A DNA stretch of 64,000 bases from Zootoca vivipara (GCF_963506605.1 NC_083280.1:41974001-42038000), one strand, 5' to 3'. Counted from the first letter of the stretch, positions 20,029-64,000 are shown. The notes: generated by a model not told the origin, from the letters alone. Numbers and translations: made by a program.

Positions 20029-25826
<5,798 letters not shown>

Positions 25827-37700: not shown

Positions 37701-40700
37701 GCTAGCGAAGCCTCACTACCTACTTTCCCCCCTCTCTCCCTTCACCCTTTGCCAAACTCCCTAAGATGGAGTGAGCGAGCCTTTCTGGCCCAACACCTAC
37801 CTTCTTGCTTCCCAGAAATCACTTCTGCCTGTGATTCAGAGAAGAGGAAATCAAATTCCAAGGGCACATCCCTCACCAGGTCCTCCAGGATGGCCGTCTG
37901 CTGCCTGCGAAGGTTCCCAAGCAGACAAACTGAGCAGCTCCCATTTCTTTGTACTGACATATAACTAGCCCCCCTCTCCACTGCTCCTTTACTGAATGGC
38001 CAAGGTGTCTAAACAGCAGACTCCACCTCATTTCAAAAACCCGTCCTTTTGTCCCCCTGTGCAAGTCACCCTTCTCTCTTGGTCTCTTTCCAGCCACGAA
38101 TTTGCAAACACTCATAACTTCATAAGCAGGACTTAATTTTTAGCTCCACTTGGGGTGGAGGTGACCCATTGCTCACTATCAAGTTAGGGAACCTTGTGTG
38201 GGAATGTTGTGGATAGTAGGACAGGATATATTGATTAAATATTCTTTCCTCACTCACATTAGTGAGCTAGTCTCCACCCCCATCGTTCTGCCCGGACACT
38301 GAGGTCCAGTGCTGAGGGCCTTCTGGTGGTTCCCTCACTGCGAGAAGTGAGGTTACAGGGAACCAGGCAGAGGGCCTTCTCGGTAGTGGCGCCCGCCCTG
38401 TGGAACGCCCTCCCATCAGATGTCAAGGAAATATATCCGACTTTTAGAAGACATCTGAAGGCAGCCCTGTTTAGGGAAGTTTTTTAATGTTTGACGTTTG
38501 ATTCTGTTTTTAATGTTCTGTTGAAAGCCACCCAGAGGGGCTGGGGAACCAGGTAGAAATAATAAATTTAGTAGTAGTAGTAGTAGTAGAGCACATTCCC
38601 TTGCACATTGCTGGAAGCTGGTTCATGGATTTGTTAGAATCATTTGAATTGAGCAATCCAGTCTGGCTTGTCCAGATTGGATTGTTCCTGGTAAATTTTC
38701 CCATTAGTTGTCTCTTAAGAACAATAATGACATCACAGTCTTCTTTTAAAAGTAATGATAAAGTTTGCTTACATTCAGCTCACAGTATTGTCCTGAAGAC
38801 AGGCTTTATCTTGTAGTTACAGTTACAGAGAAAAGAAGTCTGAGCTAGGCCTCAGACTTTCTACCTTGTGGCTTCCATCCTCTGTAAGGAGGAGTCACAA
38901 AAGAGCCAAAAGAGCAGCAAAAGAGGAAGATGGCTGTGTGACTGGCCCTTTTATAGGGTCTGCTAGGGTCACACCCATCTACCTGGTCGCACACAGGGGG
39001 AGGATGCTCCAGAGCAGGTATGACAGGAAGTCCTCCCTGTCTGGAGCAACATTCCCCTGTGTGTCCACTCTAGGAAACAGGAAATGTTGTATTTGACTGC
39101 TACAGTGACGATACACCCCACACCCTGTCCCTTTCCACTTCAGGATGCAAGTCCACCTGTAGCTCCAAGAGGCCCGGCACTTCCTGCTCCCCAGTCCCAA
39201 GCCTACTCTGCTCAGGTCTTGGAAAAATATAGCTCACTCACCAGTCAGGCAGCATCCTCATTCCTGCAGTACACAAAATGTAAAGGGGAGTCTCCTTGTG
39301 CTTGGTACTGGGCACATAGGCAGCAGCAAAGCTGAGCAGCGGCCTGATGTAGTCACTAGCTTTGTCTGGAGTGGCTGCCAGAGTAGAGATCCCTGTACAA
39401 TGAAAAGGCAATATTCCCTCAGCTGCCATCTCTAGAGAACAACTCTGCCCACCTCCAGGTGCTTGGAGCTTGTGGGTCCACAGCCACCACACAAAAAAAA
39501 ACATTTGGAAATATCCAAACCTGGCTTGATCTTCTTGACAACAGGCTGGCCGTTACGGTCTCGCATCTGCCGGATGTCCAGCAGGTCGTGCGGATTCCCA
39601 TTGTGTGGTGGCCAAAAGTATACAAAGACCCGGGAACCGCTGCTCCCGCAATCAATAACCAACCCGTAATTCAGAGATGGGTTATTTGTGTCCGTTGCCT
39701 CCAAGGCATGAAACCGTTCCAAGTACCTGCAAGGGGAATGAGGAGGATTTGGAGTTAAGAGACAGAGAACAGACCAAACAGTCTTCACACCACCCAAAAG
39801 AAAATAAAAAGGCAGATCCAGCATTCCATAGAACGCCCGCTCTGCTCTTTCAGAGGCTGTCTATTATTGCACAACAGCAATAATAGGAATTACAGGAACA
39901 CAAAATGCCTATATCACTTCTCCATAAATGCTTCAAGCGATGCTGACCCAGCACGTGCATCTAGTCTCTGCGGAGGCTCTCGTTCACCCTTCTAGAAACC
40001 AGATGAAAGTTATTGGAATTCCCCTAGGCACTGGCTTCAGCTCCTCAGGAACTGGAGAGCTGAAGCAGACATCCCAACCTACCCGCTTTATGCCATTTCG
40101 TCCGTGCAATCAGAGAACAGGATTGAGAGACCACAGCATGTCCAGCCATTAAGAAGAAAGCTAACCAAATTAGTGGGTTTTGCAGATCCATTAGGCAGAG
40201 AATTCATGCCACCACAGTTCTTATTGATCCTGCTCCCCTTTCTTGCGCTGAAGGAAATTCTGCCTCAGTCAGCACAGCCTCTGCTGCTTCCCCCACCCAG
40301 CAGCAGTGGTGGAACAAAACAAGGGTTTGAAGGCCATCCCACAGCCAACTCCCATAAAGCCACATGTTCCAACATCCTGACTTTTGCAGAAGAGGGCATA
40401 GCTTCCCCGGGCACTCAGCTACAGCAGCAGCTCCCACAAATGCCATGCACCACCCCAAGTATTCCAGTTGGATTTCCCCATGGACACAGGAGCCAAGGGA
40501 TGCACAAATACAATTGCATCTTATCCAAGAGGGAGGAGAAGCCAGACCTATCAGAGACAGAAGGTCAGGTCACAAAAGTTGAGGCATAAGCCACTATATC
40601 AGTCTTTGTTTGCATCTGTTAATCAGCATTCAAGGAAGGAAGGAAGGGTGAAGGAAGAGGAGAAGCAAAAAGGCCCAAGGTCTGCCATGAGGTAGGACTA

Positions 40701-43700
40701 CCATGGATGAGGCAGTGCCAGGCCCTCTAAATTGTGTCAGGTGGGAGAAGACGTTTATCAGAGTCTGAGTTCTAAAGGAGCCATTGAATGTCACATTATT
40801 TGAGTACAGTAATTGGTAAAGTAAAGGTAAAGGGACCCCTGACCGTTAAGTCCAGTCGTGGACAACTCTGGGGTTGCGGCGCTCATCTCGCTTTACTGGC
40901 CAAGAGAGCCGACGTTTGTCCGCAGACAGTTTTTCCAGGTCATGTGGCCAGCATGACTAAGCCGCTTCTGGCAAAACCAGAGCAGCGCACGGAAACGCCA
41001 TTTACCTTCCCACCGGAGTGGTACCTATTTATCTACTTGCACTTTGACGTGCTTCCAAACTGCTAGGTTGGCAGGAACAGTAATTGGTAGTCTGTCCCAA
41101 CAAGAAAATTCTGTCCAGTCCACATCATATTGAAAAAATAAAAGCCACGCAGCTAAATGCATCTTGTAGGATCAGCTCCGCTCTTGATGGAAGAGGCACA
41201 AGCTTTGGTCCCAGGTCCAGCAATGAACCTGTTGAAGGTAAGCTGGTGTGCATCTGGTAAGTGGCTGGGGCAACCCAGCCAGATGGGCAGGGTATTATTA
41301 TTATTACTATTATTATTATTATTATTGCCAGGATAGGCTTACCTGGGAATCCTATATATGCCACCTTGAGTTCCATGATGAAAGAAAAGCAGGATATACA
41401 TTCTATAATTAATAAATAAAATTACTGCAGGATGTTATGCAAATAAATGCTGGATGTTACTGGATATTATGCAAACAAAAGCTGCAGCAGAAATTAAAAT
41501 GTATACAATGTGAATGTATAGTTTAGAGGAAATGTGAATTTAAAAGTACGGTAATTACAACTCTCTCCTTTGGTCTGAAAATGACTTGTTTAAGGTGGTT
41601 ATCAAATGCAAATAGCTGGCTTTTGCCAAAACATTTACCCTACCTTTATCTTAATGGCCCATTTTAAAAGTGATAACATCAACAAGTCTAGACTTGTTAA
41701 TCTTATAAAGAACCGCAGCTGGAGAGACCCTCTTTAGCATATCAAATAAAATTCTGGCTTCAGAGGAAGTACTGTCATTTTCCAGCAGACCATGAGAAAT
41801 CTGGTTCAGATTGGGGGATCCTAACTTAGAATCTTAAAACTACCCCCTTATTTCTTAAGATGCATTTGGGGGACAGGCAGTATTGCCTATGGAAAATCAT
41901 CAGCTTTCATCCTTGACTTAAAGAACTGTTCTTTTTCATCTTATGGACATAAATGTAAATAATTACTTCCTAGTTTAGTAATTTTTAATTCTGAGTAATC
42001 TGCCCAGCATAGTTAACACCAATGAAGAACCAGTTAGTAATGTTAAGAAGTTTTGTTTTTGTTTTTTTACCTTTTGTTTTCTTTATGAGTTGCTTGTTGT
42101 CTTTTTATGCTTTCCTATCTCTCTGGTGTTATATTTATTGACAACTTCATTTCTTTAGGAACAGTAGACTGGCATTAATACTTCAAGTCACACATCTAGT
42201 CATTCTGAAATTTTACTCCTCTTAAGAGGAGTGGGTATAGGGGAAAAGTGAGGTGTCTGAAGTGGGAAGCCTCTTCTCCTCATGGCACTTCCTTGTGCGA
42301 TTTAGAAGTCTGCTAAATCAGGACTTCATACAGAGAGAGAGAGAGAGAGAGAGCTCTGAACTTTGTATAGATGATGCTGTGAAGAGGGGTGGGACTTGAA
42401 GCACATCTCCAGCTTCTCCTCACACGTTTGCTTACATGTGAAGCCTAAATACCCAAACAGGGACTGTGTAAAAGAGGGTGGGCAAACCAGTTCAAGCAAT
42501 ACCTCACACTTTCCAACTGCAGAACACCAACTGGCAGCAGAATTGCCAGTCCCTGCGCAAATGTACTGAAGAGCATTATATATGCGTGAGTTGGGAAACA
42601 TTTAAGGGCAAAACCCCTTCAAAATTTGGGACTTCCCAGCAGTTAAACCTTGGGTTCTTATGTTGACATGCGGACAGTCCTTCATTCCCAACATTTCACT
42701 AAATGAAGAGAGCCAACAGCAGCCCTGTGAAAGCACTGCCCAGCAGGACTAGCGCAGCGTCTTCCTCCTCCCCCTCCAGCTTAAAAGAGCTTCAGCTTTT
42801 GTTGGTGAGAAAATGCCAGCTGAACTCAGTCCACGTGGCTTCTTCCCATCACTCCCATTTTGCTGTTGGATGGGAACTGTGAAATATGTTCTGCCATTTC
42901 CTCTGCAGGTTTTTTCCATCAAGCATCTCCTTTTCTACTGCTATATTTGTGTTACACAAAAAATGCATAACTATATGCCCAATTTTGTAATCCAAGACCA
43001 GGTTTGTAGAAGAACACAGGGGAAAGGAGGGGGATAGAAGGACTTTGTGTGCCATAGAAACTGCCACTTTGTTTGGTGCCACTAACTCTCCCCTTCCCCA
43101 TAGTTTCCCCAGGAAACCAGATTCTACATTATGTGTAGCATGTATAGCAGGGGTGAGGAACCTGTGTCCCCCCCCCCGGGGGGGGTGTTGGGACTCCCAG
43201 CTCCTGTTAGTAACAGTGACCATCAGGTCAGGAACAATGAGCCTTGTAGTCCAACAACATCTAGAGCAAGGGTAGCTACCCTTGGCTCTCCATATGTTGA
43301 TGAACTTCAGTTCCCCTCATCCCTGTGGGATGGAACACTGGGGCAGACAAGTCACAACAGTTCCTAGAGTGTCCACTAACAGGAACTCACCTGGAGGGAC
43401 ACCTGACTACAGGTCAGTTCCTGTTCCCTCAGACATGCAAATGAGTTGGATTAGACAAAAGCCCTAGCCTGCAATCACTCTCTCTCTTAGCTACTTCCTC
43501 CCTCGATGAGGACACATCTCCAGAGAATCTCTAGTTAGCATGGTTCTCACTCTAGGCCTGCAGCCAAGAGTGAGACCAAATGGAGTCTTACTTTACTAAG
43601 TAGTCTCTAGATATATATGTACTTGTAACTTTTCTAAGCAAGCCTGCCTTTCTGAGATTATGCTGTAACTCAGGATGAAACTGTAAGTAAACTCTATCTT

Positions 43701-46700
43701 ATTTTATAAACACTGTGTTGTGTATTTCTTTTAAGAGGGACAAAGGGGACCTTTGCCAGGAAGTGTAATATTGAACTATAAAGTGTAATATTGTTATAGA
43801 GATTCTAGCGAATCTAACGCACATGCTTTGCTGCGCACAAAAGGGGAATGTCACTCTGCTAATATTGGAAGCTTGCTAACACAAGCTTGGATAGGATCTA
43901 TCTAATAATATATCCTAATCCACATCCCTAACATTCCCATAAAGGGTTATGGCGGCCCAGGACTGCGTATTTTTGTGTATTTTTGAAGGATTGCTTTGGA
44001 TTGTGATTTTTGAACTGAGTAGGATTTTTTCAGTTAGAACTTCCTGGTGAGCACATGGTCTATTGTTCTCCAGTGTGCCTAGGGGATTAGCTACCCCTCC
44101 CCTCCCTCAGAGTTTACAGCACTGAGAACTCAGAGGCAGTGAAGATTATTTTGCATTTTGAGATATTTTTAGAGATTTTGATTTTGGAATTTTTGGCAAA
44201 TTTTTGAATTTTGAGAAATTTTTAGAAGTTTGAGATTCCAAGATGGCTTTTGCAGATTTTGATAGTGGAGTTAACCTAGGATTAATGGCTTTAGATGACC
44301 ACAATTACGTATTTTGGAAACAACGCCTGATAGCATTTTTAGATGCAAGGAATGTTTTGGATGCCATTGAAAATCCTATGCCTACTGGCGAAACAGAAGA
44401 GGATTTAGCAAAGATAGCAACTTGGAAACGCATGAACAGCGAGGCAAGACACATAATTTTGAGTGGACTTCGCAACAGGCATCTAACATCAGTTAATAGC
44501 AAAGATGATGCAGCTAAAATCTTAAAAGATATTGAGCGCAGGTATGGAGCATCTACTAAGAACTCCTACAGGAATTTGATGAGCAAATTAACTGCGCTGA
44601 GGATGAATTCAAGAGAAGAATTCACTGACCATATCAGCAAATTTAGTGAAATTGTTCAGAGGATTGATCTTACTACTAAAGCCCTTGATGAAGAAACAAA
44701 GGTTTCATTTTTGATAGCATCTCTAGGACCAAGCTTCAGTTCATTCAAGAGTTGCATGGATCACAAAAAGGACCTGACTTTTGAAGAACTGATTGATCAT
44801 TTGAGAGAGGAATGCAGAGATTACCTTGATTCTTCAGAAAGGAATACAGGGAGAAAGGACACTAATTATACTTCCAAGCATTTTCAAAGGTCCAGACAAA
44901 TGCCAAAGGAAATAATTTGCTTTAACTGCAATTTAAAAGGGCACATGGCGAAGGAATGCCGGGCACCTAGGAATAAATCCCGCCCCTTTCCACCAAAAGG
45001 CGAAAAGAAGGGGGGTCGTGGGCGTGCAATGATATTGCAAGAAAGAAATGTAGCTTTCCAGAGCTGTGAAGGAAAGCGCAATAAGTGGCTTCTGGACAGT
45101 GCAGCAAGCAGCCATTTCTGTTATAAAAGGGAATATTTCAATGAAATAGACAATAATAAACAGTCTGAGATTGAAATTGCTGATGGAAATGTTATAAAGT
45201 CAATAGGTGCAGGATCTTTGAACTTGAATTTCAAAGTGAACAATGAGTCTTTTGATACTACAGTGAGTAATGTTAAGTATGCACCAAAGCTGAACTGTAA
45301 CCTAATAAGTGTGTCTAGCTTGGACAAGAAAGGTTTTGAAATTATATTTAAAAATGGACAATGCAATGTGATAAAAGATGGTGAAGTGTTTATTCAAGCC
45401 AAACTAATCAATGATGTGTATGAGATTGATATTTCAGAGAATGAGTCTGCAAGGGTTGCACAACCCAGCAAAAAGGATCAACCAGATCTGGAACTCTGGC
45501 ACAAAAGGCTTGGACACAGGGATACCAACCTTATCCTGAAAATGCAGAAGGAAAATCTGGTAAAAGGTCTACAGGTAAAGAATTGCAGTACACCAATGCC
45601 AAACTGTACAACTTGCATAACTGAAAAGGCAGTCAAGCCTTCCTTCCCACATTGTACAGAGAAGAGAAGCACAAAAGTCATGGACACTGTTCATACTGAC
45701 CTATGTGGTCCGCTGAATGTACCTTCCCTAGGAAACAATAAGTACATTCTGATATTTATAGATGACTTCTCAAGATATTGTGTTGGATATTTTCTAGAGG
45801 AAAAGAGTCAGACACCGGAATTGTTCAAACTGTACTTAAACATGGTGAAGAACAAATTCCAGAGAGCTCCTTCCACCTTAATTTCGGATAATGGTGGAGA
45901 GTTTTGCTCACGGCAGATGAAGGCCATCATGGCACAAGAAGGCATAGCACATGTAACTACAGTTGCTTACACGCCTCAACAGAACTCCATTGCTGAGAGA
46001 AAGTTTAGGTCTATTATGGAGATGACAAGGTGCATGTTAAAAGAGGCCAACTTGTCACAGAAGCTATGGGGTGAAGCGGCGAATACGGCGATTTATTTGC
46101 AAAACAGATTGCCTACAAAGGGTGCAGAACGCACACCATTTGAACTTTGGCACGGGAGAGTCCCAAGTCTGCAGCACATACGTGTGTTTGGAAGTGTCTG
46201 TTATTACCACGTGCCCAAAGAGCGCAGACACAAGCTTGACTCCAGAGCAAAAGCAGGTATCCTGGTTGGATATGCTCCTGGAGGAAAGGGATATAGAGTT
46301 CTAGATCCAAAGAGTGGCAGAGTAGACCCATACCATGTGGTTCATTTTGATGAACAGGGAAAGTTTGATACAAAGAACACAGTTATTGACTGTTCTAGAG
46401 AGTCACCAGATGAAGAGTTTATAAGTTTTCCTTTAGCACAAGGAACTAATATACCTCCTAGTGTCACAACACCCCCTACAGGCGACACCCCAGAAGACGC
46501 AGAGGTCCAGACCCCTGGCGGCACCAGAGACGAAGAGGAGGAGCTGTACGTGGACATGCCAGCGTTGGAGGAGGATGAGGATGCTGATGCGGTTGCACAA
46601 CCAGAGGTCAGATGCTCATCCAGAACTAACAAGGGCGTTCCGCCACTACGACTGTCCTACTTTGCAGGGTCGGCGTCTCCACCAGAACCTTCCACTTGGG

Positions 46701-49700
46701 AAGAGGTAGAGCAGATGCCAGCCACCGAAGCCAGTCTCTGGAGGAAAGCCGCGCAGAAGGAGATTGACGCACTGCACAAGAACAAGACCTGGACACTCAC
46801 AGAATTGCCTGCTGGTAAGAAAGCAATTGGGAGCAAATGGGTGTTCAAGGTTAAAAGGGGTTCAGAAGGGGAGGTGCAACGTTACAAAGCAAGACTAGTG
46901 GCACAAGGTTTTTCACAGCAATATGGCCACGACTATGACCAAGTCTTTGCACCGACAGTGAGATACAGTAGCGTAAGATTACTTTTAAGCATCGCAGCAT
47001 CTAAAGGGATGGAGGTGAAACACATCGATATAGCTACTGCGTTTTTGCATGGGGAAATTTCTGAAGAAATTTACATGAAGCAGCCTAAAGGTTTTATAAA
47101 GCCAAATGAGGCACATTTGGTTTGCAAGCTTCAAAAGGGACTGTATGGTTTAAAACAAGCAGCCAGAGCCTGGAACTTGAAATTGCATGGAATGCTGGTG
47201 AAACTTGGGTACAAGCAAGGTGAAGCTGACAAGTGTTTGTACACTAAGCAGAGTAATGGACAATTTTCTTATATTCTTGCCTTCGTTGACGACCTTTTAA
47301 TCGCAACGTCAAATGACAGGGATTATAAAAATGTAGTCCAGCACCTCAACAAGGAAGTGCAAGTGAAGGAATTAGGACCAGTTGAGTATTACCTCGGGAT
47401 TCAAGTGGAAAGAGAACAGGATGGTTCATTTCTACTCAATCAGAAGCAAAAGATAATTGAACTGTTGGAGAGTATGCAATTGCAGGATGCAAAACCCGTC
47501 GACACCCCGATGGCTACAGACTTCTTAAAGAACCAAGAGGATTCGAAGCTGCTGCCAAACAACACAGAGTATCGTTCAGCAATTGGTAAACTTTTGTATT
47601 TAGTTACCACATGCAGACCTGATTTAGCCAATGCAGTAGGGATTCTCAGCAGGAAAGTGAGTAGTCCCACTGAGCATGATTGGGTTGGTGTGAAGAGGGT
47701 GGTTCGATATCTTAAGGGTACAATGGATTGTAAATTAAAGTTACCAGCTCTCAGTGACCCTAAGCTCATTGGGTACACTGATGCTGACTGGGCGGGTGAT
47801 AATTCTGATTATAAATCCACAAGCGGGCATGTCTTTATGTATGGGGGCGGAGCTATTACATGGGGCAGTTATAAACAGAAATGTATAGCTTTATCGTCTA
47901 CAGAATCGGAATATGTTGCGGCTACAGAAGCGTGCAGAGAGATTTCCTGGCTGGACCAACTCCTAACAGACTTTGGCGTGGAGAGAAAGGAACCTATAAG
48001 CCTGCTGGAGGACAACCAAAGCTGTCTAAAGCTGGCGCAGAATGAGAAGTTCCTAGCACGCTCAAAACACATTGGGGTCAGGTACCACTACGTTCGCCAG
48101 ATGATACAAGATGGACTTGTCGAACTGTCGTACTGCTGCACATCGGAGATGACAGCAGACATCCTAACAAAACCCCTGCCAAGACAGAGTTTCCAGAACC
48201 TGCGTGTCAAGCTGGGACTCTTGGGTGGTTGAATAAAGTTGCTTATGTTTTGTTTTGTATGTAATGAATGTTGTGAATTGCCTGAGAAGGGGTTTGTGGG
48301 ATGGAACACTGGGGCAGACAAGTCACAACAGTTCCTAGAGTGTCCACTAACAGGAACTCACCTGGAGGGACACCTGACTACAGGTCAGTTCCTGTTCCCT
48401 CAGACATGCAAATGAGTTGGATTAGACAAAAGCCCTAGCCTGCAATCACACTCTCTCTTAGCTACTTCCTCCCTCGATGAGGACACATCTCCAGAGAATC
48501 TCTAGTTAGCATGGTTCTCACTCTAGGCCTGCAGCCAAGAGTGAGACCAAATGGAGTCTTACTTTACTAAGTAGTCTCTAGATATATATGTACTTGTAAC
48601 TTTTCTAAGCAAGCCTGCCTTTCTGAGATTATGCTGTAACTCAGGATGAAACTGTAAGTAAACTCTATCTTATTTTATAAACACTGTGTTGTGTATTTCT
48701 TTTAAGAGGGACAAAGGGGACCTTTGCCAGGAAGTGTAATATTGAACTATAAAGTGTAATATTGTTATAGAGATTCTAGCGAATCTAACGCACATGCTTT
48801 GCTGCGCACAAAAGGGGAATGTCACTCTGCTAATATTGGAAGCTTGCTAACACAAGCTTGGATAGGATCTATCTAATAATATATCCTAATCCACATCCCT
48901 AACATTCCCATAATCCCCAGCTATTGGTCATGTTGGCTAGGCATGATGGGATTTGAGAGTCCAACAACATCTAGAGGACACCCCAAAGTCCAGAATAATC
49001 TTAGCTTTGATTAAAGGGCACACAGTACTTTCTGACCCTGAAGACACCTAATATATGCCAAATAGCGTAGCACTTTCCTTTAGGGTTGGTTTCATTTCAT
49101 GCATAAACTAATTTGTCTTGCTGGACAATTGCTTCCTTAAACCCATTTCATTTCCTGCAGCTCTCCTCTATTTTAGAGCAGGAAAAAATAATTATATCTG
49201 GCTTTATCTCACAAAGATGTGCAAAAAAGGTATTTTGTGCTGCTGTACCTTACTTTAGAACATAGTGTTTTTCAGAAGTCTGTTGGCTGCCCTAGCTGTC
49301 TCAGAGCAGTACTGTGCCGTATTCTTAACTAATCTCTCCATGCGTTTTGTAGGGTACAAAGTGGCCTTTCCCCCCATATGAACAAGCCATTTCAGAAGCA
49401 ATTAATTTAGAATACTTTGCTAAAGTTTAGTTAACTTGGAAATGCAAGCCATGGAAATCAACTGTCTGCTTTGAAAGCACCTTTTTGCCTTATCTCAGCA
49501 TGCTTCATGCCAGTGCCATCCCATTCACCCACCTTTCAGACTGCCAGTCCCGAGAACTAGTTTTCCAGCGCCATAGATTTGTGATTCCCACAAGTAGCAA
49601 AATACTGGCTGCAAGTAAGAGGCCCAGCAGGCCCAGCCGCTGACGGAGACAAAGGCTCACTGAAGGCACTGTGAAGTGCCAAGATGCTGGACACAGGCAG

Positions 49701-50960
49701 GAAAAACTGATCCTGGAAGAGGGGGAAAATCAGATTAAACAGTTGTTAAACGTCTAGCAAAGCCTCATCAGTCAGCCACAGGTACTAGCCAACAAAATGA
49801 TCTTAGAAATCCAAGTGCTGAAGCTTCCAACGTACACAGCTAAACCAGCACAGCCTACAGCTGGAAGTTTGGAACAGGAGGGTCCTTCTTCCAAAGCAGC
49901 TGGGAATGTAACAAGGTGCAGACGAGACCCATGTGAGTACCGAGTACTGCAGTCTTAAAAAGACATTTTAACGGCATTGGCAACCTTGCATCTAAACAAG
50001 CCAGTTGAGTCAGCTAGCAATAGCTTGCAATTAATCACCAACAATGCAAGCCTATGCATGTTCATTCAGAAGTACATCCTACTATATTCATTGGGCTTAC
50101 TCCCCAGAATTGCAGCCATAATCATTAACACAGCTTTGTGGAAGGACACACATGACCTGCATTGTACATTTTCAATCTTTCCTAACTTGCACGTGGGCCG
50201 TTCCCACTTCCCCTTTCCCAACCATTCATTTGGGACTTGAATAATAATGGGGTTAAAGTGCTGGGAAACAATCACAGGTACTCTGCGGAGACCACGTGGA
50301 AACACTCAGGCTGCCCTTCTACCCTGCACCGATTAGCACCAAGCTGTGATCTTTGAACTTAAGTGGCTGCTAGCCAGGTTGGCTGTAACAGCAGAGGTTT
50401 TTAAGACATACGAGCCTCACAGAGGGAGCAAGGGAAGAGGCTAACAGCGTCATTGTAACTAGGGTCACCAGGGGCAGGGTAGCAGAAAAGAAGGGTAGAT
50501 AACGCTGTGCATATCCCAATCTCTGAGCGGCAAGAAAAGATCGCGCCATGAGCACAAAACAAAAGGCAACGCCAAAGCTCTCAGGAAGAATCCCTGCAGC
50601 AAAGCAGTTCTAAATGCAAAAGCCCCGTCCCAAAGCCATGCCGATCAACAAACAATCTCGAACCTAGATCAGTTCTGGGCTATATCTGGTTTTCAAATCA
50701 AGAGATCTTTGTGTGATCCTTCCGTTTCTTTTTTGGTCTTCCCCTGCGCTTGTGGGTCTGGGGTCTCAAACTCCAGTCCCCAAGGCTCCCACAGCGCACC
50801 TGCTCTCCCAGCGGCATCAAGGTCGCCGCCGCCCTGCCTAGCAGCCGGGAAGCGACCCACGCCCACGGGGTACGACAAGGAGGAAGCTGGCAACGACGAA
50901 AAGGAGACGGCGCGGGTAATCCGGAGGGGGGCCCGCGATCCCATCGCCTCACCTGGCCAT
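34703..50960 (-). CDS. ENTPD7: Ectonucleoside triphosphate diphosphohydrolase 7, 12 coding exons, about 602 aa
   Basis: Coding exons: 50953-50960, 49533-49712, 39521-39726, 39242-39392, 37801-37904, 37482-37538, 36963-37111, 36710-36876, 36096-36420, 35929-36014, 35613-35774, 34703-34916. The 1809 nt are in frame. Apyrase regions: DCGSSGSR, CTAGMR, EGVYAWIGINF, DMGGAS, WTLG. The 5' UTR extends to 51054, with an upstream exon donor at about 51333. Confidence 0.95.
38284..38589 (+). mobile_element. L2 3'-end fragment
   Basis: RTLRS...RAFSVVAPALWNALP...FRRHLK-like remnant, then AATAAA and a (TAG)n tail. Confidence 0.8.
40819..41076 (-). mobile_element. 5'-truncated Sauria SINE
   Basis: Reverse-complement match to the 3' part of 6864-7217. 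13-bp TSD ACAGTAATTGGTA at 40806-40818 and 41077-41089. Confidence 0.9.
43324..43941 (+). repeat. Copia 5' LTR
   Basis: Direct repeat of 48295-48912; one substitution seen by eye. Confidence 0.95.
44243..48232 (+). CDS. Copia Gag-Pol polyprotein (1329 aa): Gag, CCHC, protease, integrase, RT, RNase H
   Basis: Gag knuckle CFNCNLKGHMAKEC; protease WLLDSAASSH; integrase LWHKRLGH..CTTC, DDE (HTDLCGP, SDNGGEF, AERK) and GKGY; RT YKARLVA, LYGLKQ, FVDD; RNase H DADW, EDN, ADILTK. The IN-before-RT order is diagnostic of copia. Confidence 0.97.
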   Translation: MAFADFDSGVNLGLMALDDHNYVFWKQRLIAFLDARNVLDAIENPMPTGETEEDLAKIATWKRMNSEARHIILSGLRNRHLTSVNSKDDAAKILKDIERRYGASTKNSYRNLMSKLTALRMNSREEFTDHISKFSEIVQRIDLTTKALDEETKVSFLIASLGPSFSSFKSCMDHKKDLTFEELIDHLREECRDYLDSSERNTGRKDTNYTSKHFQRSRQMPKEIICFNCNLKGHMAKECRAPRNKSRPFPPKGEKKGGRGRAMILQERNVAFQSCEGKRNKWLLDSAASSHFCYKREYFNEIDNNKQSEIEIADGNVIKSIGAGSLNLNFKVNNESFDTTVSNVKYAPKLNCNLISVSSLDKKGFEIIFKNGQCNVIKDGEVFIQAKLINDVYEIDISENESARVAQPSKKDQPDLELWHKRLGHRDTNLILKMQKENLVKGLQVKNCSTPMPNCTTCITEKAVKPSFPHCTEKRSTKVMDTVHTDLCGPLNVPSLGNNKYILIFIDDFSRYCVGYFLEEKSQTPELFKLYLNMVKNKFQRAPSTLISDNGGEFCSRQMKAIMAQEGIAHVTTVAYTPQQNSIAERKFRSIMEMTRCMLKEANLSQKLWGEAANTAIYLQNRLPTKGAERTPFELWHGRVPSLQHIRVFGSVCYYHVPKERRHKLDSRAKAGILVGYAPGGKGYRVLDPKSGRVDPYHVVHFDEQGKFDTKNTVIDCSRESPDEEFISFPLAQGTNIPPSVTTPPTGDTPEDAEVQTPGGTRDEEEELYVDMPALEEDEDADAVAQPEVRCSSRTNKGVPPLRLSYFAGSASPPEPSTWEEVEQMPATEASLWRKAAQKEIDALHKNKTWTLTELPAGKKAIGSKWVFKVKRGSEGEVQRYKARLVAQGFSQQYGHDYDQVFAPTVRYSSVRLLLSIAASKGMEVKHIDIATAFLHGEISEEIYMKQPKGFIKPNEAHLVCKLQKGLYGLKQAARAWNLKLHGMLVKLGYKQGEADKCLYTKQSNGQFSYILAFVDDLLIATSNDRDYKNVVQHLNKEVQVKELGPVEYYLGIQVEREQDGSFLLNQKQKIIELLESMQLQDAKPVDTPMATDFLKNQEDSKLLPNNTEYRSAIGKLLYLVTTCRPDLANAVGILSRKVSSPTEHDWVGVKRVVRYLKGTMDCKLKLPALSDPKLIGYTDADWAGDNSDYKSTSGHVFMYGGGAITWGSYKQKCIALSSTESEYVAATEACREISWLDQLLTDFGVERKEPISLLEDNQSCLKLAQNEKFLARSKHIGVRYHYVRQMIQDGLVELSYCCTSEMTADILTKPLPRQSFQNLRVKLGLLGG
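48295..48912 (+). repeat. Copia 3' LTR
   Basis: Direct repeat of 43324-43941, followed by the TSD ATCCC at 48913-48917. Confidence 0.95.
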
Positions 50961-51339
50961 GTGCTCGCCCCGCAGTCCGTCAGCTTCCAGTGCGGGTCCC
51001 GGGAAGAAGTAGCATTTCTTTCGGCCGCTCCAAGCTGCCGGATGGCACTGGACCCTGAAAAAGAAAGGAAGAGACGGAGTGGTTAAACCAGCGACCAGCG
51101 CCGACGACCTCCCCGCCTCCACCCTCTGAAAGGGCCACAAAATCGGTCCGTTAATTAATGGTCCGCATTTCATCCCATGCTGAGAGCAGTTTCAGAGAGA
51201 AAAGAAAGAGAAACGCGCCTCTCGCCGCAGAGGAGGCTCCTCCGCCCCGGCAGCGCCGCGGTTCCCTTTCCACACAGGCAGCGCTCCTTTCCCCCGCTTT
51301 CCCGGGGAGCCGACTTGCCGCTTCCTTCTTACCGCGCTC

Positions 51340-52228
51340 GTCGTCCGGCACCACGACTTCGTCGGCCCTTTGCTCCAGCCACGTCCCCAGGGCGACCAGG
51401 CTCGGCGGCAGCAGCAGCAGCCAATGGCAGAGCCCGTGTAAGGTTGACGCAACGGAACCGAGTCAGCCTGGGCTCCGCCTCTCGCGGCGGGCAGCCAACC
51501 AACTGCGCTTATCGAAGGGCACGCCGTGGTTTCCAGGACGGGACCCGATACTCTCCTCAAGTGTCTTTCTGTAATTTCCAACACGTCACAAGTTCTGGGC
51601 CAACCCGGCGAGGGTCATTCGGGCGGGTTTTTGTTACGTCATGCGTATATTGCCCAATTCGTAGGCCCAAGGGTGGGTTTTCAACGTACACTTCTTTTTT
51701 TCTCCGTGGGCCTCGTCTTCGCCGGGACGCGCAAGCGCCCTGTTGCCCATTCGCAGCTGCCTGTCAACCCTAACACTGCATGTTTGGTCCATCAGTGTAC
51801 TGTATAGGCATATTCTTCCCACGGCAACGTCATCACTGAAAGCAAGCCAACCAACATCCACAAACAAACCCCACGCACCATAGAAAACTGCGCAGCCTTA
51901 TTACAAGCCTGTCACTTTGAGCGGCAGGCATCATAGCCAATGCTTTTCTCCTTTTCCCCACGTATAGCGAATAAAGCGAAAAAGTAGCCAATCGGGTGAG
52001 GAACGAACGAAAGGTCAAAGAGGTATTGCCCAATATCCTCCCTGGATAGGCGGGAGATAGGACCGACTTTAGCCAATGGAAGCGAGCGTGAATCGCAGGC
52101 TACCAATGGACATTGGCTCGGGGCGGCGCGAAAACCGTCAGCGGCCAATGAGTGACGTCCATGGGCGGGGCGGACAGAGCGGGAGCCGCAGGACCGAGTG
52201 TGCAGCCCGCAACGGACTCGGCGGTGCC
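51340..52228. promoter_or_regulatory. Shared CpG island / divergent promoter region for ENTPD7 and SLC25A28
   Basis: CCAAT boxes at 51421, 51937, 51988, 52030, 52073, 52103, 52112 (reverse) and 52145. CRE-like TTACGTCA at 51634-51641; GC boxes. Confidence 0.75.
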
Positions 52229-55200
52229 ATGGAGCTCGGGGCGGGCCGCGCGGCTGGGCCCGGGCAGCGCGGTGGGGCAGAGCCGGGCCGCCAGCTCCTC
52301 CTGCTGCTGGGCGGGGGCGACGGTGGAGGGTCGGGTTGGGCGTGGCCCTCGGGGGGTGGCGGGGAGGGTGGGACTGGAACGGACACGGAGGCCGGCCCGG
52401 AGCCGGAGTACGAGGCCCTCCCGCGGGGCTCCGCCGCCTCCACCCACATGCTCGCAGGGGCTGTGGCGGGGGTGCTGGAGCACAGCCTCATGTACCCAGT
52501 GGACTGTGTCAAGGTGAGAACGGGCGCCGAGCTGCTCTCGCGCCTCCGGGAGCAGGGCGGGTGCTGGCGGGAATCGAGGGGCGGGGATCTGAGACGAGAC
52601 GCGGGAGTCACTGGGCAGGACCTGAGAGCGGTTAACCGGTACACGATCTTCATTAGTGTTGCACTTTAATCCGCATCACCGGACGGTCCGACTCGATCCG
52701 AATTTAGCAAAAAGGGGGGGAACAGTTGACAGAAAGGCGAAGGAGGTGTACCCCCGATGAATGTGATGGAGCTAACGACTTTGGGGAGGGATGGATCAAA
52801 CACGTTCTTGGCTCTTTTGCTGGCTAATGGCAGAAGTGCCAACGAACGATCACTTGACAGGAGAGTTATGTGTTGCCACCAGTAGTTGACAAGAAGCAAG
52901 GTCGGTTTCCTTGATCACGTTTCAGGCCTTCACTTTTGCTGCCAAAGCGACCGACCTGGTTCCGGAAATATTTGGTCTCAGTCATGGGTCTGGGAGGAAG
53001 GGATAAGGTGTGTGTGTGGGGGGGGTTACACATGGTAGAGCCTGGCAGGCGGGAAGGCCCCCTGGTGATCTGCAGACACCTGCAAAGGTCGCCTGTGAGC
53101 ACCCATTTGTATGCAGCCACCAAATGCAGCTGAATGTCTCTGAAAGGAAGGAGTGTCTTGGGTTGGGAGAGCTGGGTGTGGAGTGGAGCACTTACTAGGC
53201 TAAGTCTCTTGGCATATCTAACCTGCTCCCCTCCCTGCGCTGGCAGACAAGGATGCAGAGCCTGCAACCGGAACCTGCTGCTCGCTACCGGAATGTGCTG
53301 GAGGCCCTGTGGCGGATCGTGCGGACTGAAGGGATCTGGCGACCCATGCGTGGATTGAACATCACAGCCACAGGGGCAGGCCCTGCTCATGCCTTGTATT
53401 TCGCCTGCTATGAAAAGTTGAAAAAGACACTTACCGACATTATCCATGCTGGGGGCAATAGTCACGTGGCCAACGGTATTGTCCCTTCTTGCCTCCTTGC
53501 CCCACCCTGAGGGTTCCTATGTTCCCAGCTAGGACTGTTAGTGAAATGAAGAACTGGATGCCTGGTTCTTTCTTACTGCTCTTATATTTAACTTTTGAAT
53601 CCTGTTTACTATTGACATTCTTCCCTAATGTTGTGTTCTGCTTCACTCCAAGCATTATCTAACTCTGATAATTAGGAATGTAGGATTTGCCATTGACTTT
53701 TGAAAGGAATTTGTGAATGAGAAGGGATTGTGGGAACAAGATGGGACTGACAGCTGCAGTTTCCATCTGAGCAGACAGAAACTTTTTTTATTGTGAAGAT
53801 AGTTTGAAATATTATAGAGAAATGGGTGTGTTGCTGTTTGTATTTCATTTTGACTTTATATAATGCTCTTTCTTTGAAGCAGCTGTCCCAGATATGTCCA
53901 TGTTTGTATCTGCTCTTACATTTGTCCTTTTAGCATCCTCATTTTTGAGTGGGGAGAACCCCAAGCTTGTTGTAACGTGTTGTAGAGTCTGGTCTGCTTA
54001 CATATACTTTTTCACACTAGCATGCTTCTGAGGCTCCTTCATCTTTGATAGTCTGGACAGATAATAGGAAGACCTAATTAGCTGGAGATCCTAGAATTTT
54101 GGAACTAACTCGTCTGACTCTGAAGCTTGTTGGATGTGTTAGCAGGACGGTGGCAGGATCCTAAATAGCTGCAAGACGATCTTGGCTCTTCATTGCTCTA
54201 GGAATTAAAGATGATAGATAACTTACAGTGCAATCCTAACCATGTTTACTCAGAAGTAAGTCCTATTTAGTTCAGTGGGACTTACTCCCAGGTAAGTGGA
54301 GTTAGGATTGCAGTCTTAAGTCTTCTGATTCCCCATCCCCCACCCCATTCCTTCCAATGTGGGTTGAGATTAATATGATAAATATTGCCTGCACTGGAGC
54401 CTTGAATATTTCTGATGTTCCCTTTCTGAAAACTAATGCTAACTTCTCAGTGAACTTTCATTCTCTCTTGGGGAGGGGGGGGGCGTTCCTATTTGCTCAC
54501 ATACACTCCTCCGGTGCACATTCTGAGAGCTCCATAGGACAATGGCAGGTCTTCTTCCCACTTTTCACATGTAATAGTCCTTGTTTTGCAGGCGCAGCAG
54601 GCTGTGTGGCAACATTGCTTCATGATGCAGCCATGAACCCAGCAGAAGGTAATGTTGCTTCCCAGCAGTCCTGCAACTTTCATGCGGCTTGTGCTGCTCC
54701 ATTCTTGTCACCAGGGGGTGCTTTCATGTTGCTTGTGATACAGTTCAGACATGGAGCCTTACCTGCGACAAGGGTCTTTGGATGTAGTGGGTGGGTGGTG
54801 GACAAGACTTTGGCTGAAGCAAAGAAGGTATTTGTGTGTCTGCCCTTGCTCTTGGTGTTGATAAATGACATAAAAACAATATTGCAACTTGTCTTTCATA
54901 TTTGTGTTCCCTACATTGTGTAGGCAAAATCAGATCTCATTTCAGTAAACCCCATTTTTTACTTGATGTCTCACAATTCCAGAATTGGGGCATTACTGTT
55001 TTTTCATGAGTTGTGGAGTTCTGCAGGATTTGCTGGGTGGGTAGATAGATCACACTGAGGCAAGTTTGAGGGACGCAGCGGCTCCTGAATCTATTAAAAG
55101 TGTTTACATAGTATGCACACTGTTCAGATCACTGCACTTAACTTATTTTTTCTTTGCTCTTCCCTGCCCTTCTCTCGTCTCCATGGCTGGGCTGCTACTG

Positions 55201-55733
55201 TCATCTTGTGATCAGTGGTAAAACAGAGAATGCAGATGTACAACTCTCCATACCAGCGAGCAACAGACTGTGTACGTGCTGTATGGTGCAATGAAGGGGC
55301 AGGAGCTTTCTACCGAAGCTACACCACTCAGCTGACTATGAACATCCCCTTCCAGGCCATCCACTTCATGGCATATGAATCTTTGCAGGAACACCTCAAT
55401 CCTCACAGACAGTACAACCCTAGTTCCCATATGGTGGCAGGGGCTTGTGCAGGGGCCATTGCTGCTGCTGCCACCACCCCGTTGGACGTTTGCAAGACAC
55501 TGCTGAATACCCAGGAGGCCCTGGCACTGAATACCAACATCAGTGGGCACATTACAGGCATGGCTCATGCATTCAGGACGGTGTACCGCGTGGGTGGGCT
55601 GACTGCCTATTTTCGAGGGGTACAGGCACGTGTCATTTACCAGATGCCCTCCACAGCCATTGCCTGGTCTGTGTATGAGTTCTTCAAATACTTCCTTACC
55701 AAGCGAAAGGAGGAGCGATTGGCCGGGAAGTGA
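52229..55733 (+). CDS. SLC25A28: Mitoferrin-2, 4 exons, about 362 aa
   Basis: Exons 52229-52513, 53247-53475, 54592-54648 and 55216-55733; the 1089 nt are in frame. Carrier motifs YPVDCVKTRMQ, NPAEVVKQRMQ and [17 protein letters not shown] at 56148-56153. Confidence 0.96.
54224..54319. mobile_element. Short palindromic MITE-like repeat (related copies at about 31400-31490 and 63605-63700)
   Basis: TGCAATCCTAAC...GTTAGGATTGCA inverted ends with an internal GTAAGTCC/GGACTTAC palindrome. Confidence 0.6.
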
Positions 55734-56267
55734 AATGTGACTCCACCCGCTGGATTGGCTGGTGCCGGACTCAGATGACAAGCAAGCCTTTGGAATAACA
55801 ATGCCGCCTCTTGCCTGCTGCTGCATTTTGCACAGCCCATCATCCTTCTCCCAAATGGATAGTACACAATGAGCAGCAGCTTGGCCTGCCCTTTTCTAGC
55901 CTGTCACCTAACATGCATCTCCCTTGCCCCAAAAGTTGTATTCCCTTAAAAGAGGTGGAGACTACCATGAGCTACCGTGAGCACATTGGAACTTGGGGTG
56001 GTGACCTGCATACCCTGACTGGGTTGCTGTTACGACTGCGTGGTGATGGAGGCAGGGGAAGTGTTAGCTGAGCTGTTGTCTAGTAGCACACACATAAACC
56101 TCATGCTCTCTGGGAAGGCTTTGATTGTTGTGGCCCTTGGCACCTCCAATAAAGTCTGCTTTATCGTCACAGCCCTTGTTTGCTCTTATCTCTTGCTCTC
56201 TTTTTAGCAGCTCTATAGGGCTTTGTTACAGGTAAGTTGGATCAACTTATAGCAGGACGGTCTAAAT

Positions 56268-61799: not shown

Positions 61800-62416
61800 C
61801 TACCAAGCTCGGATGCCCTGACTACAGGAAGGCCCCGCGGGACCCTGGTGCAGGGCCTGCGCGCCGCCCGCGAAGCCGCCCATGTTCATGTAGGGCCCCG
61901 CAGGCGGCTGCACCGACGGGCCCCCGCTGTTGGCCGCCGGGTAGCTGCAGCCGTAGCCGGCCCCGTAAGTAGCCGCGGGGGAACCGCCGTAGGCGTAGTT
62001 GGGGAAGCCATTATAAGGATAGGCGGCGGCGGCGTTGTAGGGCGCGCTGTAGGCCTGCGAGCCGCCCAGGCAGGGCTTGCCGTCCCTCACCAGCACGGGC
62101 ACGGCCACCCTACGCGGTGGAGGCGGAGGCTGCTGCGACGGCGGAGGCATCCCCGCCGTCGGGCCTCCCAAGTCCAGGGCCTTGTCCTGCCGCTGCCGCT
62201 TGCACTTGTAGCGTCGGTTCTGGAACCAGATCTTCACCTGCGTGGACGTGAGCTTGAGGCTGCTGGCCAGCAACTCGCGCTCGGGGGCCGACAGGTAGCG
62301 CTGCTGCTGGAAGCGCCGCTCCAGCTCGAAAACCTGCGCTTGCGAGAAGAGCACCCGAGGCTTCCTCCGGCCGCGCGCCTTGGGTCGCTCCGACGACTCC
62401 TCCGTGGGCTCCTTCC
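61800..62416 (-). CDS. NKX2-3: NK2 homeobox protein NKX2-3, exon 2 (exon 1 lies beyond the window)
   Basis: Acceptor at 62417-62418. Homeodomain 62190-62369 ([13 protein letters not shown]...[13 protein letters not shown], Tyr54), NK2-[17 protein letters not shown], Tyr-rich region and C-terminal GIRAW. The paralog assignment rests on synteny with SLC25A28/ENTPD7. Confidence 0.92.
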
Positions 62417-64000
62417 CTGCAGAAGGAAACAACAGAGAGATACTCGAGTCAAGAACCGGGGGACTGCGGGCTGCGCTCGCTCGCGATACAAGGAACCAGT
62501 ACAACACATTGACAGCCCCCATTATCACCTTGCAGAAACCTCATTTACTCGTAACTCGTTTCTCAAGCCAGATGAATAGATTATTTAAAGGGAGAGGAGA
62601 GAACACGTTGCGCAGGCACCAGGAAGGGCCGACATCTGTTTTCGTTTTCTTTTTTAATGCACCGAATGCCAGGTCACAACATAATTCCGTCGGTTTCTTA
62701 CAGGGCACTCCTAGGCAGGTTAACCCAGAAGTAAGTCCCGCTCTGTTCAATGGGCCTTACGCCCAGGTTAAGGGTGCATATCACCGCAGCCTTAAAGGGC
62801 ATAAAGACACAGCTGCAACAACAACCCCAAAACTCTTCTCCTGCAAAATAAGCCTGCAGCAGAAAAGCGCGCCTGTAATTCTATAGGCGGAGCACATTAG
62901 AAACACGGTTTGCAAAGTATTATTATTAGTAATAGTATTAATATTATTACATAGAAAGTTGAGCCTTCCGCAACGGAATATGGCCGCTGCTTCCCGGCCT
63001 TGAAAATGAAGGAGCAAGCGCCGCCTGGCATTCTGCAGATCAGCCAACTCGAGAAAAACTTGAGGGAGCGAAGTGTGTATTTTCCCCCTCTGTGCCACCA
63101 GGACTGCTTAAGGCAGCCCGAAGAAGCAAGGACTTGGGAAATGGATTTATGCCCATTTAGGAAGCAGACGGCAGTCTTTATGCTCCCCAAGATCCCGCAG
63201 TGCGAACACGATCTCCTCCCTTCCAGGGAGGGAGGGAGGCCAGGCCAGGCCCGTTACTGACTGACACCGCGCAAGCAAGAGCTTTGCTTGCAGCGCCTCG
63301 AACAAAACCTTGGCCCGAAGGATCCCCAAACTAGATCCTCTCGCGCTTTGACCATCCCTCGACCCACTCCACTCCATCTCACCCCGGGTGCTTTCCTCGA
63401 GGGGGCTTGGAGCCAGCGGCACCATCATTCCACCAAGGCGGCTCTCCTTGTTGCCAGACCACCAAGGCTGCGAGGCTGGGCCTCAGAGCGTTTCCTTGCC
63501 TCTGTTTTGGGATGTGGATGGCTCGGCGTGGCCAAACGAGTCGCCCCCTTTCTGCCCAAGTCTCCAGCTGAACCGAAGATGCTTCCTTGTAAGCCAGGTC
63601 CACAAGTAAGGGTCATTAGGATGCACTCCGAGGCAAACCTCCATTGGGGAAGCGGGACTAACTGAACTTTTACATCCGAGTCGAACAGGGCTGCAGTGTG
63701 ACCACCCAATCCGGTGCATTTTACCCAACGGCGTCCCGTTGTGTTCAGGGAGGCTTACGCTCAGAGACGCGTAGAGCGGACAGCAGCCTAAGCACGTTTA
63801 CTCGGAAGTAAGCCTTCAAAGTTCCACTTCGCTAAGCGACTTGGATTTGGAGGTGCCCAAGCACTTCTGAGCAGCGCTGAACCGTGCCGACGTGCTCCTG
63901 GAGACGCGGATGTCGCGTGTCCCACTTTCAGCACTTTCAGCATTTCACCCACTTCCCACCATTTGGCTGGAGAAACGGTGATTCCAAGCCACAGACGCGC

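Follow-up and report, generated by a model that had tools for sequence, protein, structure and literature searches.

The stretch of Zootoca vivipara DNA analysed here (GCF_963506605.1 NC_083280.1:41974001-42038000; 64,000 nucleotides (nt), hereafter the window) carries a full-length Ty1/copia long terminal repeat (LTR) retrotransposon at 43324..48912 on the plus strand, inside an intron of the gene ENTPD7, and raises the question of how recently this element arrived, whether its family is still moving, where that family came from and how its reverse transcription is primed. The answer best carried by the evidence, with a probability of roughly 0.85, is that the insertion is very recent, intact, antisense in ENTPD7 and absent from other haplotypes, and that it belongs to a young family (family A) that is likely mobile and likely inherited vertically, with priming predicted from the 5' half of the initiator methionine tRNA (tRNA-iMet).

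The element, recognised from its LTRs, target site duplication (TSD), open reading frame (ORF) and Pfam domains, is flanked by the 5-bp TSD ATCCC on the left (43319..43323, plus strand) and on the right (48913..48917, plus strand). Its two 618-bp LTRs (43324..43941 and 48295..48912, both plus strand) differ by one substitution (43479/48450) and no gaps, and the change at 48450 is private to the 3' LTR of the window, as the base of the 5' LTR is shared by all 156 LTRs from other copies that could be scored (20 could not). A single Gag-Pol ORF of 1329 amino acids (aa) without a stop (44243..48232, plus strand) encodes Gag, zinc knuckle, protease, integrase, an SH3-like domain, reverse transcriptase (RT) and RNase H. 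The Pfam order is Gag, protease, integrase, SH3-like and RVT_2, the zinc knuckle scores 20.3, marginally below the Pfam cut-off of 20.8, and the RNase H motifs come last. The position of integrase upstream of RT-RNase H in one polyprotein, the RVT_2 type of the RT and the presence of paired LTRs, primer-binding site (PBS), polypurine tract and 5-bp TSD are those of a Ty1/copia element. The termini are TG...TA rather than the canonical TG...CA, which is usual but not strict for Ty1/copia, and the boundaries were set by the TSD. No env-like ORF is present, only 62 bp lying between the Gag-Pol stop codon and the 3' LTR. The polypurine tract GAGAAGGGG and a TT spacer (48284..48294, plus strand) precede the 3' LTR, and this TT mirrors a 2-nt AA spacer behind the 5' LTR (43942..43943, plus strand); by analogy with retroviral-type end processing, both spacers may represent the integrase 3'-processing overhang. 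The first-pass annotation had described an uninterrupted 1329-aa Gag-Pol with catalytic motifs, LTRs differing at one position in 618 bp and a perfect TSD, all of which were confirmed by the ORF, Pfam order, motif check and exact alignment.

The same annotation had suggested that the copy may be polymorphic, and the presence/absence check agrees with it, yielding contigs without the element at the site from three runs of the species. The 1462-nt contig of run X9 joins the flanks without the element, the letters past 43323 being those from 48918 on, so that the flanks meet at the left TSD; the 1177-nt contig of X3 passes directly from the left into the right flank; and the X11 contig departs from the right flank without entering the LTR. 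The empty site is therefore supported by 3/3 contig runs compared of the family-bearing species. Run X12 had no coverage of the flanks, and the intron adjoining the element drew no reads from either of two RNA read sets. A run search listed no RNA run among the holders of the element, a negative that was given no weight. The element reads of RNA run X21 lie mostly on one strand, which is sense if the library is of the usual stranded type. Some points weigh against the proposed reading: the empty-site contigs are among the matches listed and filled alleles are possible in the same runs, the X21 reads carry alleles of other copies and so are no evidence that the window copy itself is transcribed, and transposition, cDNA and primer were none of them observed directly.

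A genome of 1.44 Gb in 48 contigs was searched, and an exact-pattern search answered the copy-number question raised by the annotation with 142 LTR-PBS junctions of family A genome-wide. From these, 104 copies were retrieved, comprising the 24 best full-length matches and 80 of the 85 further ones listed on C1-C9. Two LTRs were parsed in 89 of the 104, with no substitution between them in 55, one in 23, two in 9 and four to five in 2 (mean 0.09%), and an exact 5-bp TSD was found in 88 of these 89. Assuming ~3e-9 substitutions per site and year, a single difference across the 618 bp corresponds at face value to a few hundred thousand years, with wide error, and the difference may itself be an RT error. 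The suggestion of a very recent insertion is upheld by the identical or near-identical LTRs found throughout the family. The ratio of sequencing depths was dropped as a measure of copy number, with X3 at ~96x against 25x for X9, which is possibly RNA. An ORF of at least 1320 aa is present in 54/104 copies and one of 1192 aa, shortened by an in-frame deletion across the zinc knuckle, in 23/104. This 411-bp Gag deletion (window-equivalent 44560-44970), found in ~21-23 of the 104 copies, removes the zinc knuckle, and the deleted form has itself spread, likely in trans. Family A copies are mosaic, with four gametes at ~80% of site pairs, as is the expected outcome of template switching. At G000:C6:24.67-24.91 Mb, six family A junctions lie within 180 kb, some as inverted pairs and with equal spacing, which may reflect segmental duplication.

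All 89 parsed two-LTR copies of family A have TG...TA ends. The LTR-end pattern gave 696 matches, and 43 of the first 100 listed have a CA end; the 12 CA-ended LTRs retrieved are all older, with 77-96% identity where aligned, no PBS behind them and a 5-bp TSD in 9. As the CA-ended LTRs are diverged and the young copies all end in TA, the TA end was derived in the young burst. The Copia-like TARE1 of tomato likewise amplified after a change in a terminal dinucleotide, although TARE1 starts with TA whereas family A ends with TA (PMC3701649).

Family A has a sister group in the same genome, family B, with 593-bp TG...CA LTRs and a 1341-aa ORF. The two families are 84% identical over RT-RNase H, with a synonymous divergence (dS) of ~1.1 and a ratio of nonsynonymous to synonymous divergence (dN/dS) of ~0.08, and are 25% apart in DNA. 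The RT motif of the window copy reads FVDD, a form that recurs in 100/104 copies of family A, in all 31 of family B and in both of the nearest database proteins. Among the family B loci (L112 and 30 others, for example G000:C2:56454190-56460290), 28/31 combine identical LTRs with an exact TSD, and several are identical to one another over ~4.9 kb, which makes family B even younger than family A.

The putative PBS of the window copy (43944..43960, plus strand) is complementary, apart from a 2-nt insertion, to the anticodon arm of tRNA-iMet (gene nt 40 to 26). The anticodon-arm pattern occurs at nine genomic loci, and tRNA-Met(CAT) genes, presumably of the initiator type, were found at all five that were scanned. 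Complementarity to the anticodon stem-loop of these genomic genes is bulged in most copies, and at 9 of the 142 family A junctions the AA spacer is followed by an exact complement to nt 40-26 of the gene. Among the first 100 of these junctions listed, 89 have TAC replacing one G, 3 have TAT, likely a product of CpG decay, 7 are exact and 1 has GGC. The GGC form is found in family A in the window copy alone and is unique among the 142 junctions. In family B, 27/31 copies have TGC, 2/31 are exact and 2/31 have GGC. Two changes are required to pass from either bulge to the exact form, and the predicted duplex has -27.5 kcal/mol when bulged versus -35.9 kcal/mol when exact. A tRNA gene with a bulged loop was not found in the genome, the single other match being neither tRNA nor element, and other Copia families in the genome carry the exact site.

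According to work cited in PMC10886601, PMC10275265 and PMC5371799, Drosophila copia and yeast Ty5 are primed by half-tRNA-iMet, at a site complementary to the iMet anticodon arm that lies just after the 5' LTR, as in family A. What sets family A apart is a 2-nt bulge in the majority site, together with a 2-nt spacer and, upstream, a box that matches the tRNA's 5' end. No work on bulged or reverting sites in half-tRNA-primed Copia was found in the open-access paper listings searched, which likewise gave no earlier description of the primer-site pattern. A third family in this genome, family C (L163, G000:C1:21471428-21480000, and 11 more junction matches), with ~350-bp LTRs and an open 1333-aa frame 30% identical to the window element, carries, without a spacer, a fixed primer site of 31 nt that equals nt 40-10 of tRNA-iMet. 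At the metagenome Copia loci L182, L188, L189 and L236, half-tRNA primer sites seem to continue downstream with more tRNA-complementary words.

The upstream box CACTCTGCT in the LTR (43852..43860, plus strand) is complementary to nt 1-9, the 5' end, of tRNA-iMet and is a predicted second primer contact. Every copy of family A (104/104) and of family B (31/31) retains it. The sole 7-mer common to all 8 sampled lizard LTR ends, which form about three non-aligning groups, is the core of this box, against a background of 11/386 bins in the window, although this comparison is partly post hoc because the motif was first spotted in family A. The box is not general, with 0/24 among primer-like sites in 80 metagenome loci, some of which have little upstream sequence. 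Its complementarity to the tRNA points to a role in priming. The proposed cycle would begin with transcription from the 5' LTR and particle assembly, as in the textbook LTR cycle, followed by priming from a fragment of tRNA-iMet that ends at gene nt 40 and is possibly also held by pairing of the LTR box with nt 1-9, and by plus-strand priming at the polypurine tract. Plus-strand synthesis would in some cases continue into the tRNA primer, giving ~6% of copies the tRNA's own sequence, while the bulged form would stay in the majority, probably as the favoured form. Two nt would be trimmed off each end before a 5-bp staggered insertion.

Such one-way conversion should erase the bulge, yet families A and B keep it, and selection is the simplest reading. 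Candidate reasons for its retention are escape from tRNA-fragment silencing, as proposed for mouse endogenous retroviruses, or a structural role. In mouse ETn, MusD and IAP the commonest primer site is mismatched, with perfect sites scattered as apparent revertants, and priming was proposed to be traded off against tRNA-fragment silencing (Cullen and Schorn 2020, PMC7472051). The lizard families share the imperfect majority and the revertants, with the difference that the mouse elements are retroviruses primed by tRNA 3' ends (PMC7472051), whereas here a half-tRNA-primed Copia has ~6% revertants. A more speculative reading, less probable than not, is that lizard Copia elements have a two-part site gripping both ends of the tRNA-iMet 5' half, copy the primer into some new insertions in the manner of retroviruses and are selected to keep the site imperfect, in a priming-versus-silencing trade-off against tRNA halves in the vertebrate germ line. 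Alternatively, the bulged site could be neutral and persist only since the source copies happen to carry it. The moderate predicted loss in duplex stability and the fact that the GGC copies of family B did transpose agree with this, but two families separated by a dS of ~1.1 keep a +2 bulge in most copies despite one-way conversion, and neutrality is a possible though doubtful explanation.

Copying of the primer into new insertions is probably the best reading of the exact sites. The exact family B copy L127 has 0 substitutions relative to several bulged (TGC) copies over ~4.9 kb and is 2 nt shorter at the site, and a second exact family B copy lies ~12 changes away, which requires at least two separate events. 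Three old insertions (L138, L160 and L162) are chimeras in which an LTR end and AA lead into a reverse-complemented stretch of tRNA-iMet that starts at nt 40 and reaches at least as far as nt 10, after which partial LTR sequence resumes, with joints at short shared words. The tRNA part begins exactly at nt 40, the candidate end of the primer, in all three, and they resemble plus-strand DNA whose synthesis continued through the primer. Chimeras that break off near nt 10, and the mismatch that L162 has at the position opposite G9, would fit methylation of G9, a modification that review passages confirm in general terms and that tRNA-iMet presumably carries. In the window copy the first 9 nt of the PBS match the tRNA and the remainder matches the family, so that partial (9-nt) primer copying is likely.

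Other observations count against primer copying. In family A, a test of linkage aimed at recurrent conversion had little power, as the copies are heavily recombined and ordinary low-frequency SNPs (single-nucleotide polymorphisms) are unclustered too. The two family B GGC copies are sisters (7 differences) whose form was inherited and arose once, and a convergent origin of GGC within family B was rejected on this ground. Only ~6% of sites are converted, far under the 50% expected for retroviruses (PMC7472051), so that copying is a minority route or is selected against. It could also be argued that the primer was not copied at all and that recombination has shuffled an inherited exact-site allele, or that exact sites were acquired from co-packaged RNA of exact-site Copia families. 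Family A is indeed highly mosaic, the exact site is present in other families of the genome, and strict inheritance of the element's own PBS has been reported for Ty1 and Ty3 (PMC7472051). However, L127 equals bulged copies on both sides of the site and would need a double switch within ~17 nt, and one exact form is found in two families as distant as A and B. The chimeras hold tRNA sequence past the usual site, from nt 40, yet the 31-nt site of family C could supply nt 40-10. On balance an origin without copying is unlikely.

The annotation had further raised the possibility of horizontal transfer, but the RT tree and dS check do not support one of recent date, as the closest relatives are lacertid. 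The nearest proteins over RT-RNase H are 83-84% identical, the better cluster including a protein from Podarcis lilfordi; single-domain relatives ranking next do not exceed 55% identity and the best-scoring named arthropod single-domain match is from a spider, at 49%, in protein databases that hold few squamate element ORFs. In a quick tree of 33 rows, the lacertid-containing group sits on a long stem, and these relationships fit long residence in lacertids. The best of the 80 metagenome loci is only 44% identical over RT-RNase H, and the ESM Atlas returned generic RVT_2 clusters only. No closest relative in a distant host, with divergence below that of host genes, emerged from these comparisons. 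Recent transfer of family A from a non-reptile is very unlikely, even though Copia is patchy in vertebrates (PMC11889832) and most of the internal region occurs at ~99% identity in X12, a run whose label names another organism. In X12 both the element and a lizard repeat (~40.8-41.3 kb) have ~1/20-1/60 of the X3 depth, with no single-copy flank covered, and this joint shallowness is best read as trace lizard DNA; the X12 organism was accordingly rejected as a transfer partner. An ancient transfer into tetrapod ancestors is a hypothesis of PMC11889832. Least credible of all is an old and fixed insertion with LTR identity due to gene conversion, for although older solo LTRs of the lineage exist, this account is contradicted by the empty-site contigs, the intact ORF and near-identical full-length copies with 81 distinct TSDs among 88.

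The ENTPD7 intron that contains the element antisense (39727..49532, minus strand, GT..AG) is 9806 bp long. The element occupies 57% of it, matching the earlier estimate of over half. An exon at ~37.0 kb shows 100% identity with an ENTPD7 cluster that bears the name of Lacerta agilis, other squamates reaching at most 94%, which makes a lacertid lizard the most likely host, and the Lacerta agilis-named ENTPD7 protein maps across 34.7-49.7 kb on the minus strand. Spliced ENTPD7 junction letters are present in run X9, and at 49531-50981 a deeper X9 contig ends in a spliced ENTPD7 junction, so that X9 is maybe RNA or the first exon is extended. Elsewhere in the window, the segments 1-503, 22861-23313, 52100-55900 and 61800-62540 presumably represent a long interspersed nuclear element (LINE) RT fragment and exons of COX15, SLC25A28 and an NK2 homeobox gene.

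A young intact Copia in an amniote is an already known situation for squamates, and the rarity claimed in the first-pass annotation was not supported. Copia was reported in 23/24 squamates, including lacertids, with 1004 sequences in Podarcis muralis and 304 in Zootoca vivipara (Klai et al. 2025, PMC11889832). Mtanga was given as the only Copia clade in Lepidosauria (PMC11889832); it shares its host group with the window element, whose membership in Mtanga is suggested by that host group, and the term 'PBS' is absent from the main text of the paper. The corn snake has a young Copia of 5832 bp with 85 near-identical copies and trait-causing insertions in OCA2 and CLCN2 of colour morphs (PMC4657000, PMC11948899). 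It is likewise ~5.8 kb long, polymorphic in genes (OCA2 intron 11) and called possibly active, but its insertions disrupt genes, with cryptic exons in OCA2 (PMC4657000, PMC11948899), whereas any effect of the window copy on ENTPD7 is hypothetical.

The window copy is mainly useful as a presence/absence marker and adds to the signs that insertion continues in lacertids. Of greater weight than the presence of a young Copia is the primer-site pattern, as it offers natural-genome evidence for the end of a half-tRNA primer in a vertebrate and for the heritability of that primer's sequence, an inheritance that a review denies for Ty1 and Ty3 (PMC7472051). Two young families with several site forms constitute a countable system for asking whether tRNA halves silence retrotransposons.

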